Counted from the stretch's first letter, positions 1-22,434 are shown. The stretch: DNA of 64,000 nt from Candidatus Helarchaeota archaeon (GCA_019058315.1 JAHPZH010000005.1:288001-352000), one strand, 5' to 3'. Numbers and translations: made by a program. Notes: generated by a model not told the origin, from the sequence alone.

Positions 1-983
1 GCATTGTACATTTGAATCGCTTGAAGTGCACCCCCGATTGTTATCCTTGTGAGACGCTGTATGGGAATAAAGGAGACTCTTGCAACCTCTATGATCCCTT
101 CTAGTCCTCCGCTCCAAAAATGACCAGCAACCTTATCCAGATGAAGCCTTCCTGTCAAATAAAACTGGGAAGGAGCCCTGTAATAGACTATTCCATAGGA
201 AAAGTAATGGGAATCTCCACTCAAGATCATCTGGCATTTTTCTAATGAGTAATTGTTTCGTGAAAGGGTCAGAGACCCGTTCAATCCATGATATGACGCC
301 CGTGCCACAAGATAAGGAAATAAGAAATTGTCTCCAGAATTGGAATAAATAATATCAGGGTCGAGTTTTCGAACTGTATCTGATAGAGCAATCAATTTAT
401 CGACTTCGGTGGCTCCATCAATCGTGATATCTTCTTCGTTGAGGGTTACTTTTAGCTTTCGGATGGGGTCGTTCAAACTTGGAACTATGTAACTGGCACC
501 AATATCCGCGTCGAGATGTAAAATACGAAAATCTGGCAAAGTATAATCAATTTGATCTTGCGAATCTGCCAGCTTGAGATTTAAATGCCCATTTTTTTTG
601 GTATAATCGCCAAATGCAAGCGGAAAAAGATTGTTGTCATATAAAAACATCTGAGAAAGTGGAATATCTATGTTAAATACTGCACTGTTCTCAAGAGATA
701 CAACATCCCTAACCGTTCTTTTAAAATCTCGCACATTTACCTTTACCTCTATCACTTTTTTCTTTCGCTTGTGATTTATGTTGACGTACTTGTCAAGGGT
801 CTTTACATCTTCCACGCAATCATGATACCTTAATGCTCTTTTTAACTCGTATAAATTCTTGGAATACACATAAAATCTTGGATAATAATCAACGTGCATT
901 TTCTCTACTTGACCGTTCGGTTTCTTCAACCAAAGCGCTATTCCTCGATTTTCCACGTTCAGATCCAACAACCATGCTTTCAA
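1..983 (-). CDS. polB2: Family B DNA polymerase, PolB2 type (5' part; runs off the window edge)
   Basis: Hand translation from TTG at 983, open to position 1: KAWLLDLN..ALWLKKPNG..YYPRFYV..FNIDIPLSQMFLYDNNLFPLA..DPDIIYSNSGDNFLFPYL..HYFSYGIVYYR..LTGRLHLD..GLEGIIEVARVS..IQRLTRITIG. These motifs are typical of archaeal PolB2. Not in the ORF track because the stop is outside the window. Confidence 0.85.
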   Translation of the reverse strand, partial: MKAWLLDLNVENRGIALWLKKPNGQVEKMHVDYYPRFYVYSKNLYELKRALRYHDCVEDVKTLDKYVNINHKRKKKVIEVKVNVRDFKRTVRDVVSLENSAVFNIDIPLSQMFLYDNNLFPLAFGDYTKKNGHLNLKLADSQDQIDYTLPDFRILHLDADIGASYIVPSLNDPIRKLKVTLNEEDITIDGATEVDKLIALSDTVRKLDPDIIYSNSGDNFLFPYLVARASYHGLNGSLTLSRNNYSLEKCQMILSGDSHYFSYGIVYYRAPSQFYLTGRLHLDKVAGHFWSGGLEGIIEVARVSFIPIQRLTRITIGGALQAIQMYN

Positions 984-1047
984 TCTTGGAGCCTCTTATG
1001 TTCGCTTCTCATTGATCAAAAGATCATAATCTCTTAAAATTAGAAAC

Positions 1048-1087
1048 GGAGGGAGAGATAACTGAAAGAAAGTTAATTTGTCGGTTT
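1048..1087 (-). promoter_or_regulatory. Putative regulatory element upstream of polB2, shared with the radA-like operon
   Basis: + strand GGAGGGAGA-N11-GAAAGT..TTTGTCGG; same blocks at 22393-22434. Confidence 0.5.
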
Positions 1088-1193: not shown

Positions 1194-1694
1194 ATGACAG
1201 ATATTGAAGAAGTAGATAAAAGATTTGAGTCAAAAATTAAAGAATTAAAAGAGATTCTACCAGAACATTATAAGAAAGATATGAGCTCACCGAGAAATTG
1301 CGCTGCTTGGACTGTTGCAAGTATTTTAGATATTTTAGGAATTGATAACCTTAACATTATTAACATGGCTACACCCTTAGCCGTAGTTGGTGGAAATTGT
1401 GGCGCATTGGAAGGCGGCTTAATGATGGTGGGCTTAATTCTCGGGAAAAAAGGAAAAAAACCCTTTAATCATTTGGTTGCAACTATAGAAGGATTAAAAT
1501 TTGTGAAAGCATTTGAAAAAGAGTTTGGTTCAATTAAATGTAAAGATTTAACCGGTCTTGATTTATTGACTGAAGAGGGACAAAAAGCTTATGTTAATGA
1601 AAATATCTGGGAACAAAAATGCTATAAACATGTTATTGGTGCAGTAAAGACCATTAGAGATTTATATAAACGAAAAATTGCTAAAATAATTTAA
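1194..1694 (+). CDS. C-GCAxxG-C-C family putative redox protein
   Basis: NCAAW, GNCGALEGG, IKCKDLTG, KCY; ATG at 1194 preferred over TTG at 1149. Confidence 0.8.
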   Translation: MTDIEEVDKRFESKIKELKEILPEHYKKDMSSPRNCAAWTVASILDILGIDNLNIINMATPLAVVGGNCGALEGGLMMVGLILGKKGKKPFNHLVATIEGLKFVKAFEKEFGSIKCKDLTGLDLLTEEGQKAYVNENIWEQKCYKHVIGAVKTIRDLYKRKIAKII

Positions 1695-1766: not shown

Positions 1767-2285
1767 TTGGTCACAGTTGAGGAAGTAGAGAGACATTTTG
1801 AACTAAAAATTAAAGAATTAAAAGAAAATTTACCTTTGAAATATAAAAAGGAAAAAATTCAACCCCGAAATTGTGCTGCTTGGACTATGGCTAGTTTATT
1901 AGATATTCTGAACATTGAAGATACCAAAATTAATACTAATTTTATAAATATGGCATCCCCTTTAGCTGGAATTACTAGAATTTGTGGGGCTATTGGGGCT
2001 GGATTAATGATTATAGGATTAATTGTAGGAGAGAGGGGAGAAAGAGAAATTCCTCAATGGACAGCGGCAGCCGAGGGGATGAAGTTTGTAAGGCGTTTTG
2101 AAAAAAAATTTGAATCAATACAATGTCCTGTTCTAACAGGTCATGATTTACTAACATCAGAGGGAATGAAAGCATATATAAAGGAAGATGTTTGGGGAAA
2201 AAAGTGCTACTTGCATGTAACAAACGCAATTGAAATAATCGGTAGATTATATAAAAAAAAGATTGTAAATATCATTAAAATTTAA
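1767..2285 (+). CDS. C-GCAxxG-C-C family putative redox protein, tandem paralogue
   Basis: NCAAW, ICGAIGAG, IQCPVLTG, KCY; clearly similar to the upstream gene. Confidence 0.8.
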   Translation: MVTVEEVERHFELKIKELKENLPLKYKKEKIQPRNCAAWTMASLLDILNIEDTKINTNFINMASPLAGITRICGAIGAGLMIIGLIVGERGEREIPQWTAAAEGMKFVRRFEKKFESIQCPVLTGHDLLTSEGMKAYIKEDVWGKKCYLHVTNAIEIIGRLYKKKIVNIIKI

Positions 2286-21241: not shown

Positions 21242-21517
21242 TTATTTTGGTGTTTCCGATTCTAAATTTTTTAATTTTTGAACCTCATCCTTCAGTTCTT
21301 GAATTTCTTTTTGTAATTCGAGTAAAATAGAGATGAAGAGAACCTCAGATACCAGTGGTCGTGAGATATAACCTCCAGCATCTGCTCGTAAGCGTGCCGC
21401 ATTCATAATTTTGTCGAAGTTCTTTTTATCTGCTGGACGCAAGGCTCGTCGAAATTCTGCCCAACTCGCAATTTCGTGTTCCAATATCATTCTAAACGTA
21501 GGTATTGTTCGTCCCAT
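21242..21517 (-). CDS. Small PolB2-associated helical protein (arCOG07300-like)
   Basis: MGRTIPTFR..WAEFRRALRPADK..F...; ATG overlaps the stop of the upstream radA-like gene (TAATG at 21519-21515). Confidence 0.75.
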   Translation of the reverse strand: MGRTIPTFRMILEHEIASWAEFRRALRPADKKNFDKIMNAARLRADAGGYISRPLVSEVLFISILLELQKEIQELKDEVQKLKNLESETPK

Positions 21518-22236
21518 TAAGGTTCCCCCAGCCAAAAGTTGAGATTTCTTTGTAGAGGTATCGGGGTTGATTTCCACATGATATTTTTTTGGAAACGACC
21601 TCCTTTGAGTTTATAGAAATCTATACGATTTTGATAATCTAATACATGAACAATTACATCAGCAAAATGACTCATAATCTTGCCTCCTGCTGGTTTAAAC
21701 CGTGAGTTCTGAGCATATCCTGTAGAAACTACAACAACCGCATTTTTTTCAAGCGCAAATTTTTTAAGCTTTCCGAGAATTTTTAAGAGATCTCCAAAGC
21801 AAGACTGTGTTTTGGGGTCGAACATACCAGTCAATCCCGAAATGAGAAGAAGTCGTGCCTCTAATCCTTTCATTTTATTTATGACAATATCGACCGTTTG
21901 TTCCCAAGTGAAGAATCGGGAGATGAGAATACGTGATAAGACATGACGAGGGTTTAGTTTTTTAGTGACGGATTTTTGGGAGATGAAGTAGGGATCAAAG
22001 GAAACATCACCGTCCACATAGATTACTTTCGAATTAAGACCATTAAGTGATCGCGGTAGTTGAGCTGTAACTGATAGCGTTAGAAAAATCTGTCTAATTA
22101 CAGATCTTTGCCCATATAAAAGATAAAGAGTTCTGGGCATAAATCCTCCATCAAGTAAGTCGTCTAATTCTGCATTTTCACTGGTCAATTTAGTTATGTT
22201 TTTTTGTCGATTGTATTCGTGTGAAGCGGAGTTCAT
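21517..22236 (-). CDS. Inactive RadA/RecA-superfamily paralogue of the type found with PolB2
   Basis: ELDDLLDGG, VTAQLPRSLNGLNSKVIYVDG, KPAGGKIMSH are RadA-like; Walker A degenerate (YGQRSVIRQ); Walker B lacks Asp (LLLISGL). Confidence 0.82.
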   Translation of the reverse strand: MNSASHEYNRQKNITKLTSENAELDDLLDGGFMPRTLYLLYGQRSVIRQIFLTLSVTAQLPRSLNGLNSKVIYVDGDVSFDPYFISQKSVTKKLNPRHVLSRILISRFFTWEQTVDIVINKMKGLEARLLLISGLTGMFDPKTQSCFGDLLKILGKLKKFALEKNAVVVVSTGYAQNSRFKPAGGKIMSHFADVIVHVLDYQNRIDFYKLKGGRFQKNIMWKSTPIPLQRNLNFWLGEP

Positions 22237-22392
22237 TTCATTACCTCAACAGCACATATTAACTTAAACTACAATATTTGAGTTAAAATTCCGACATTTC
22301 GACAGCCTCGGGTAGGAATTTGCCAACATTCGATCAATTCCTCTAGAATTTTAACACCATAGAGAGATACCTTTTGGAAAATATTAATTGTA

Positions 22393-22434
22393 GGAGGGAG
22401 ATCTGGAAAAGTGAAAGTATTGAATTTTTGTCGG
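22393..22434 (-). promoter_or_regulatory. Putative regulatory element upstream of the radA-like operon, shared with polB2
   Basis: + strand GGAGGGAGA-N11-GAAAGT..TTTGTCGG. Confidence 0.5.

Follow-up and report, generated by a model that had tools for sequence, protein, structure and literature searches.

To our knowledge, among Archaea only the Sulfolobales are known to have a DNA-damage regulon for which both the cis element and the regulator have been defined. The damage-responsive element (DDRE), 5'-ANTTTC-3' within AATAGTTTCRGWDTACTCWS, is bound there by Orc1-2 (PMC6061795; PMC9738581; PMC12490963). In S. islandicus, the 20-bp consensus AATAGTTTCRGWDTACTCWS was derived from 21 induced promoters (Sun et al. 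2018, PMC6061795). Mutation of the ANTTTC core abolishes induction by NQO, Orc1-2 footprints on the element, and the induction of the polymerase Dpo2 (PolB2) depends on Orc1-2 (PMC6061795).

PolB2 is part of a mutasome together with PPB2 and iRadA, as described by Makarova et al. 2014 (PMC4104785) and Timinskas et al. 2025 (PMC11791011), and all three genes are damage-induced in Sulfolobales (PMC11791011). The word 'promoter' is absent from PMC11791011, the available part of PMC4104785 describes no promoter box for the mutasome, and our literature search returned no description of the element reported below in Asgard archaea.

We analyzed a window, the whole stretch of 64,000 nucleotides, from the genome of a Candidatus Helarchaeota archaeon (G000; 5.79 Mb, 12 contigs, about 30% G+C). 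A sequence-only reading had proposed that polB2 and a radA-like operon in this window share an upstream motif of three blocks containing ANTTTC. We consider it probable, with considerable room for doubt, that the two sites are copies of a transcription factor element homologous in form to the Sulfolobales DDRE, which co-regulates the mutasome and repair genes after damage.

Two composite sites and the split PolB2 mutasome

Each of the two sites lies upstream of a minus-strand gene, and the three blocks have exactly the sequence, positions and spacing that had been proposed. On the plus strand, GGAGGGAGA, GAAAGT and TTTGTCGG occupy 1048-1056, 1068-1073 and 1077-1084 at site 1, and 22393-22401, 22413-22418 and 22427-22434 at site 2. 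Blocks 1 and 2 are 11 nt apart at both sites, while the distance between blocks 2 and 3 is 3 nt at site 1 versus 8 nt at site 2. The following features were annotated around them:

3..983, minus strand: N-terminal 327 codons of PolB2; start codon TTG at 983, with GAGG as ribosome-binding site in front
1031..1041, minus strand: putative TATA-like box AATTTTAAGAG, site 1
1048..1056, minus strand: C-rich block TCTCCCTCC (equivalent to GGAGGGAGA), site 1; 3' half of the unit plus extension
1053..1073, minus strand: damage-element-like unit of the PolB2 promoter; coding strand ACTTTC (1073-1068) overlapping TCTTTC-AG-TT-ATCTC-TC (1069-1053)
1077..1084, minus strand: CCGACAAA box (equivalent to TTTGTCGG), site 1
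21242..21577, minus strand: PPB2 (arCOG07300-like), small helical protein; likely start at the internal MGRTIPTFR
21517..22236, minus strand: iRadA, Rad51-fold protein, 239 aa
22291..22304, minus strand: direct repeat of two TGTCG(G) boxes (TGTCG-aaa-TGTCGG), 55-68 nt upstream of the iRadA ATG
22378..22389, minus strand: putative TATA-like box AATTAATATTTT, site 2
22393..22401, minus strand: C-rich block TCTCCCTCC, site 2
22396..22418, minus strand: damage-element-like unit of the iRadA-PPB2 promoter; tandem ACTTTC (22418-22413) and ACTTTT (22412-22407), then CC-AG-ATCTC-CC
22427..22434, minus strand: CCGACAAA box, site 2

The pattern GGAGGGAGA-N9-13-GAAAGT matched twice in the window versus not once in each of 100 dinucleotide shuffles. 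By themselves, GGAGGGAGA and TTTGTCGG have 25 and 81 copies in the 5.79-Mb genome, and the two-block and three-block composites were found at sites 1 and 2 only. The spacers between the blocks are entirely unlike at the two sites, which excludes a recent duplication of a longer stretch.

The polymerase at 983..3 carries the Pfam domain DNA_pol_B_exo1, and the full product of 736 aa, whose gene extends beyond the window, matches an NCBIfam type B polymerase. We assign this family-B polymerase to PolB2 from the gene order in relatives, whose orthologues have a PPB2 gene immediately in front (f4, f10, f16 and other groups). The PPB2 of the window is homologous to these genes directly preceding PolB2, and since the homologue of the small gene fronts the polymerase orthologue in relatives, the set represents the PolB2/PPB2 (arCOG07300)/iRadA mutasome. 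The third member is an inactivated RadA: the Walker A motif of iRadA reads YGQRSVIRQ and lacks GK[ST], while the true RadA of G000 has GEFRTGKTQ. The two functionally linked genes that had been placed behind the motif are thus PolB2 and iRadA-PPB2 of the published mutasome, present in G000 as two units.

The degenerate Walker A of iRadA, the N-terminal MGRT.P.FR arm of PPB2 and the linkage of an Orc1/Cdc6 paralogue to repair genes are shared with the published mutasome. Unlike there, polB2 lies 21 kb from iRadA-PPB2 in G000, with a copy of the box at each part, and no orc1/cdc6 gene adjoins PolB2, one following radA instead. In family f4, the mutasome genes are neighbours, yet not always in one operon, and the f4 genome G030 has a minus-strand gene between them. 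The attribution to Asgard archaea holds as well, as the relatives are titled Promethearchaeia or Promethearchaeota, including 'Loki_b32'.

Several other genes were noticed around these loci. Tandem paralogues of the putative redox protein family C_GCAxxG_C_C (window 1194-1694 and 1767-2285, plus strand) are transcribed divergently from the PolB2 promoter region. A second RadA paralogue (C2:281941-282927, a frame of 343 aa, 79% identical to RadA) lies about 4 kb beyond polB2, and C2:12823-13110 encodes a fragment 64% identical to iRadA residues 122-220, near the motif gene for a 149-aa protein (C2:15021-15470).

Read on the coding strand, blocks 1 and 2 form one unit, ACTTTY(-ACTTTY)-N4-WNCTC-TC, located 0-13 nt before a TATA-like box. 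The core form is (AAT)ACTTTY-N4-WNCTC-TC, often with a tandem second ACTTTY and a C-rich tail. Behind the 11-nt spacing are two hexamers at each window site, overlapping at PolB2 and in tandem at iRadA. The spacing given by the sequence-only reading was therefore correct for both sites, but it conceals the second hexamer, the real unit being hexamer-N4-ATCTC. Likewise, only part of the three-block motif stood: blocks 1 and 2 belong together, and the third block is a separate element.

At site 1, the TATA-like box begins 7 nt after the C-rich block and its TTTTAA core 11 nt after the 22-nt matrix site described below; the corresponding distances at site 2 are 3 nt and, for a TTAATA core, 6 nt. 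A TATA-like hexamer follows 8/8 motif sites of G000 within 0-13 nt, although such words are common at 78% A+T, and we regard the TATA-like box after every motif site as a suggestive promoter mark only. In G000, 36-157 nt separate the end of the unit from the start codon, a placement other than the -23 to -55 of the Sulfolobus element, whose genes are mostly leaderless. The placement relative to the TATA-like box resembles that in Sulfolobus.

We scanned G000, 11% of which is non-coding, with AATAGTTTCRGWDTACTCWS, a definition independent of this genome. The best match genome-wide, AATACTTTCAGTGTACTCTC (C3:1298245), agrees with the consensus at 19/19 specified positions and the second-best, AATACTTTCGGAATGCTCTC (C6:37838), at 18/19, both in non-coding DNA. 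From the non-coding base composition, about 0.001 perfect (19/19) and about 0.06 one-off matches are estimated to occur by chance. By eye, the PolB2 site of the window agrees with AATAGTTTCRGWDTACTCWS at 14/19 specified positions and the iRadA site at 10-13/19, depending on the hexamer aligned. In G006, the iRadA promoter starts AATAGTTTC.

ACTTTC, which fits the ANTTTC hexamer, is present on the coding strand of the promoter at both window sites. Across relatives the last base of the hexamer is C or T; ACTTTT occurs in many of the Loki relatives and ACTTCC in a few. The proposed link to the Sulfolobales ANTTTC element turned out stronger than first noted, as the whole unit fits AATAGTTTCRGWDTACTCWS, with both halves and the spacing. 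The view of the motif as a candidate Asgard DNA-damage operator is supported too, with one reservation: 'operator' implies repression, and a site upstream of a TATA-like box fits activation equally.

The Asgard unit thus has the hexamer of the Sulfolobales DDRE, a second half (T)ACTC/ATCTC at the same 4-nt spacing and, at several sites, the flanking AAT. It is also promoter-proximal with a fixed orientation and precedes PolB2 (Dpo2) and homologous-recombination genes, whose control in Asgard archaea is predicted. The two differ in that the host belongs to Promethearchaeia and not to Thermoproteota, the Asgard hexamers are often in tandem and end in C or T, the C-rich tail is longer, the start codon lies farther away and at varying distances, and no ups or ced genes are in the Asgard motif set. 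The tandem hexamers, the C-rich tail and a companion TTGTCGG box are lineage-specific features of the Asgard element.

Conservation at orthologous promoters

The iRadA orthologues of 30 relatives share only 33-43% protein identity, so that neutral non-coding DNA is expected to be scrambled at this distance. The upstream regions of the iRadA genes of 21 relatives nevertheless align on the block TTTTTACTTTYAATSACCYCTCTCTGTCTC between unconserved flanks, and in f4 the distance from this block to the iRadA ATG is constant at 165-172 nt. Orthologous promoters were scored with a matrix built from five G000 sites, with both window sites left out, at a threshold of at least 12. On the coding strand of the iRadA promoters, 21/24 reached this score (median 17.9), versus 0/24 on the opposite strand (median 2.3), 2/28 RadA promoters (both from the same order; median 3.65) and 0/29 Hef promoters (median 3.3). 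Hence, the box is specific, strand-bound and conserved.

In G001 (same family) and in G003, G004 and G006 (same order), PolB2 does not have PPB2 directly upstream and has its own ACTTTY...CTCTC box, namely CGACAAAaaACTTTCacttctctc in G001, ACTTTCgggtaTCTCTC in G003, ACTTTCataaaggaCTCTC in G004, and ACTTTT with TCTCTC further on in G006. Only 2/4 of these separate PolB2 promoters reach a score of 12 with the fixed-spacing matrix.

PolB2 was found in 64/151 genomes sampled across the phylum. In f10, which has a higher G+C content and comprises at least 12 genera, tTA[C/G]TTTC[A/G]G with a C-rich tail (for example GTCCCCCTC) precedes PPB2-PolB2 at 23/23 loci, mostly 63-144 nt before PPB2 and at about 300 nt in two loci, again between unconserved flanks. 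ACTTTC or AGTTTC is present in 23/23 of these promoters, and TTACTTTCGG is one of the box forms seen. The underlying 8-mer has 33 copies in 95 kb of these loci, counting both strands, and 23/33 are the promoter sites. The two loci of f15 and f25 have ATTTTCAGRTATCTCTC before iRadA (f15: ATTTTCAGGTATCTCTC; f25: ATTTTCAGATATCTCTC), and f29 has ACTTTCTGG beside the TATA box. The motif is thus conserved at orthologous promoters across Asgard classes, as 21/24 iRadA promoters of the class, 23/23 PPB2-PolB2 promoters of f10 and the two loci of f15 and f25 agree. Outside the phylum, a marine group II archaeon presumably has a like box, TTCACTTTCAC, before its PolB2 unit.

The largest related family, f4, differs from this picture. 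None of its 79 PPB2-PolB2 loci (0/79) reached a score of 12, and one box common to both mutasome units in every Loki family was rejected on this result. The PPB2-PolB2 promoter of f4 instead shares with iRadA a second box beside the TATA box, TCAGAAAATT-N5-GTAT, whose reverse complement contains ATTTTC, and in many of these promoters ACTT(A)CTTYTGG follows the TATA box ahead of the ATG. Evidently, the circuit has been rewired between families and is not uniform.

We also considered Hef and RadA orthologue promoters as further tests of conservation and set them aside, the unit being absent from them outside the order. The RadA promoters of f4 (L073-L094) have a strongly conserved box of their own, TTGAAAAATTAGAASTCTATTTTATTTAAAATA, beside the TATA box, as do the Hef promoters (L099-L122) with a stretch containing GACTCTGTAACTTTATAA; both boxes end in RACTCT/GTCTAT words. 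The nhmmer profiles of two f4 elements, 'element A' and 'element B', returned nothing significant in G000, its own sites included, as the forms found in f4 diverge too much and are too short. A contig scan with a single PolB2 fragment found no relative, and an alignment of nine sequences contained no stretch conserved enough for a search.

The third block behaves independently of the unit. Among the motif sites of G000, CCGACAAA/TTTGTCGG is present at the PolB2 and iRadA sites only. In relatives, CGACAAA abuts ACTTTC at the PolB2 gene of G001, and the f4 iRadA promoters have the box as TTGTCGG. The two direct TGTCG(G) boxes at 22291..22304 are the counterpart of 'element B' in relatives, where 20/21 aligned f4 promoters contain AGAAAATTGTCGGnGTA at about 45 nt upstream of the iRadA ATG. 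Past the 3' end of polB2, at C2:286183-286330 (L065 6184-6330), there are three TTGTCG boxes, about 1.7-1.8 kb before the window start and about 2.7 kb from the site-1 box. They form palindromes of the type TTGTCG-N4-CGACAA, including the perfect palindrome TTTTTGTCG-AGAC-CGACAAAAA. The boxes past polB2 probably make up a complete operator, and the third block would be one half of it; we read the third block as a half-site for a separate dimeric, locus-specific regulator.

Gene set and candidate regulator

The 740 kb of non-coding DNA of G000 were searched by a pattern scan and then with a 22-nt matrix. The motif is not randomly distributed: besides the exact composite, unique to two promoters, about nine matrix matches of at least 19 stand against 0.45 expected from shuffles, although the pattern that yielded the seeds had been drawn from the window sites, and two matches without the seeds are a modest excess. 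Nine sites, comprising seven seeds and two new ones, scored at least 19.7, followed by a gap to 17 or below. Left out one at a time, the seeds scored 14.4-27.1; the PolB2 site dropped from 26.2 as a seed to 19.3 and the iRadA site from 24.7 to 14.4. The sequence-only reading had held the hexamer alone to be too short to be significant, and rightly so: the composite carries the case, with the conservation at orthologous promoters as the decisive part.

Besides the mutasome, the unit precedes genes for a Hef helicase (NCBIfam equivalogue, above the cut-off), a PLD-like protein and the 149-aa protein mentioned above, which has no known repair role; two sites are without a clear target gene. The true radA lies behind a weaker variant of the box, found by the pattern scan only. 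Two strong boxes precede paralogous genes with products of about 52-55 aa (C3:1299368-1299700 and C11:638719-639050). These products share W.P..ST..KI.(F/Y)LK..F and FW.LY..VK.LNS, and a Cys-rich ORF comes after each gene (a zinc-ribbon-like one of 89 aa and a membrane one of 119 aa, respectively). As the promoters are themselves paralogous, they count as one event. The small proteins are candidate damage-induced microproteins.

In 27 f10 genomes, a pattern search yielded 25 matches versus 14 in a reversed control. The matches away from PolB2 precede UvrB and, in two genomes, NreA-like genes. Boxes of the TACTTTCGG type precede deoxyhypusine synthase in two genomes (L174, L177) and a DUF3795-DUF763 pair in two genomes (L194, L195). 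An unannotated Cys-rich gene with a CxxC pattern like that of this pair adjoins iRadA on the opposite strand in the f4 genome G030.

The motif sets of both G000 and f10 thus combine PolB2 (Dpo2) with recombination or repair genes. The motif stands before repair genes and not before unrelated genes at a similar rate, with Hef, the PLD-like protein, RadA-Orc1/Cdc6 (weak) and the small proteins in G000, and UvrB and NreA-like genes in f10.

In analogy to Sulfolobales, the regulator would be a non-initiator Orc1/Cdc6 paralogue. G000 has four Orc1/Cdc6 paralogues (C6:26 kb, C6:66 kb, C11:236.3-237.5 kb and C3:1275763-1276953), one initiator-like and three divergent. One of the divergent paralogues (396 aa) follows radA (379 aa) on the same strand after 28 nt (C3:1275763-1278121; L060, L129), and this pairing is kept in G001, G004 and G002. 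Its apparent co-transcription with radA behind a weak box makes it the candidate reader in G000. Among solved archaeal Orc proteins, all three divergent paralogues score best against 1FNN. The structure 1W5S, a homologue of Orc1-2 (PMC12490963), ranks last for the RadA-linked paralogue and fourth for the other two. A placement of the RadA-linked protein in the Orc1-2 clade was therefore dropped, the similarity to solved structures not being supportive. A further Orc1/Cdc6 paralogue shares 45% identity with the RadA-linked protein and is arranged tail to tail with a TFB paralogue (C11:236319-238089; L128).

In the mechanism that we propose, a damage-activated regulator would bind the unit directly upstream of the TATA-like box and help TBP and TFB to load there, and this loading would induce the motif genes after DNA damage. 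Four points of this model are predictions: that the site activates and does not repress, that damage induces the genes, where the unit lies with respect to the transcription start, and which protein binds it. The unit would in this way co-regulate the three subunits of the PolB2 translesion polymerase, encoded 21 kb apart, together with a small set of repair and recombination genes, while the third block CCGACAAA/TTTGTCGG may serve a second, locus-specific regulator.

Weighing of alternatives and relation to other systems

A cis-regulatory site could also belong to a programme other than the damage response, coupled to the cell cycle or to replication, and be read by a factor unrelated to Orc1/Cdc6, such as a wHTH or RHH protein or a TFB paralogue that takes CTCTC as an unusual BRE. 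The programme could drive the expression of recombination and polymerase genes. The CTCTC block does abut the TATA-like box, where a BRE would sit, and G000 has eight TFB paralogues. What makes us regard this reading as rather unlikely is the close fit of the unit to a consensus that is experimentally damage-responsive in Sulfolobus (PMC6061795), together with the damage induction of the PolB2, PPB2 and iRadA genes wherever tested (PMC11791011). The motif genes speak to both sides: UvrB, NreA and Hef point to repair, but deoxyhypusine synthase in f10 and the 149-aa protein in G000 are not repair genes, RadA and Orc1/Cdc6 are replication-linked too, and Makarova et al. 2014 considered that the PolB2 complex might act in replication (PMC4104785).

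It is much less probable still that the conserved stretch works in RNA, as a 5' leader that controls stability or translation, even though the motif is strictly on the coding strand and its 157 nt to the iRadA start codon leave room for a long leader. The stretch has no Rfam match and no folding signal (z = -0.72 and +1.57), the alignment of 21 sequences has by eye no covarying helix and only linear blocks conserved, every site has a TATA-like box downstream of the unit, and in Sulfolobus this word is bound by its regulator as DNA (PMC6061795). Least credible of all is a likeness of the window sites by chance, or as a functionless remnant of a promoter duplicated when the operon was split. There are only two exact copies, and short block matches between A+T-rich spacers are easily found among many region pairs, but the blocks are kept between unrelated spacers, and the unit recurs at orthologous promoters despite 33-43% protein identity and in other classes. 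The orthologous promoters (21/24 for iRadA, 23/23 in f10) exclude both chance and a duplication scar.

We therefore return to a damage-responsive element as the preferred reading. Like the bacterial SOS box of LexA, it is a short shared box before a translesion polymerase and other repair genes and would allow the coordinated expression of dispersed genes. It differs in that its sequence is unrelated to the SOS box and not palindromic, its place is upstream of the TATA box and not over the core promoter, and the factor in the Sulfolobus model activates as well as represses. The origin recognition boxes ORB and mini-ORB resemble the unit in having a GAAA/TTTC word and a G/C string on one strand, and the unit, like them, would be read by a protein with a wH domain and an AAA+ ISM. 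In an ORB, the two parts follow each other in the opposite order, and the Asgard unit is without a dyad and lies before genes, not in an origin. The motif as an origin recognition box was set aside on the differing order of the parts.

Should the element operate in Asgard archaea, it would provide a first handle on the damage response in the closest prokaryotic relatives of eukaryotes, with a predicted gene set of the PolB2 mutasome, Hef, RadA, UvrB, NreA and several small proteins. A shared box would account for the co-regulation of a three-subunit polymerase complex after its operon was split, and a regulatory role of Orc1/Cdc6 paralogues outside Sulfolobales would become directly testable. 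More tentatively, and with less confidence than we place in the element itself, the ANTTTC element and the core of its regulon might be an ancient archaeal damage circuit, extending from Thermoproteota to several Asgard classes and read by non-initiator Orc1/Cdc6 proteins. If so, a checkpoint-like transcriptional role of Orc1/Cdc6 would predate the split leading to eukaryotes.

Finally, a repeated hairpin-like element is present in G000 in at least five copies (C1:22134, C3:1300550, C5:109578, C11:733208 and C11:641104). It consists of a GC-rich inverted repeat, gagcccaaccctcg / cgagggttgggttc, around the conserved loop ACTTTTTAACCCCCTCCTCCCTACATTCCCC; a small RNA gene and a miniature mobile element are both conceivable.
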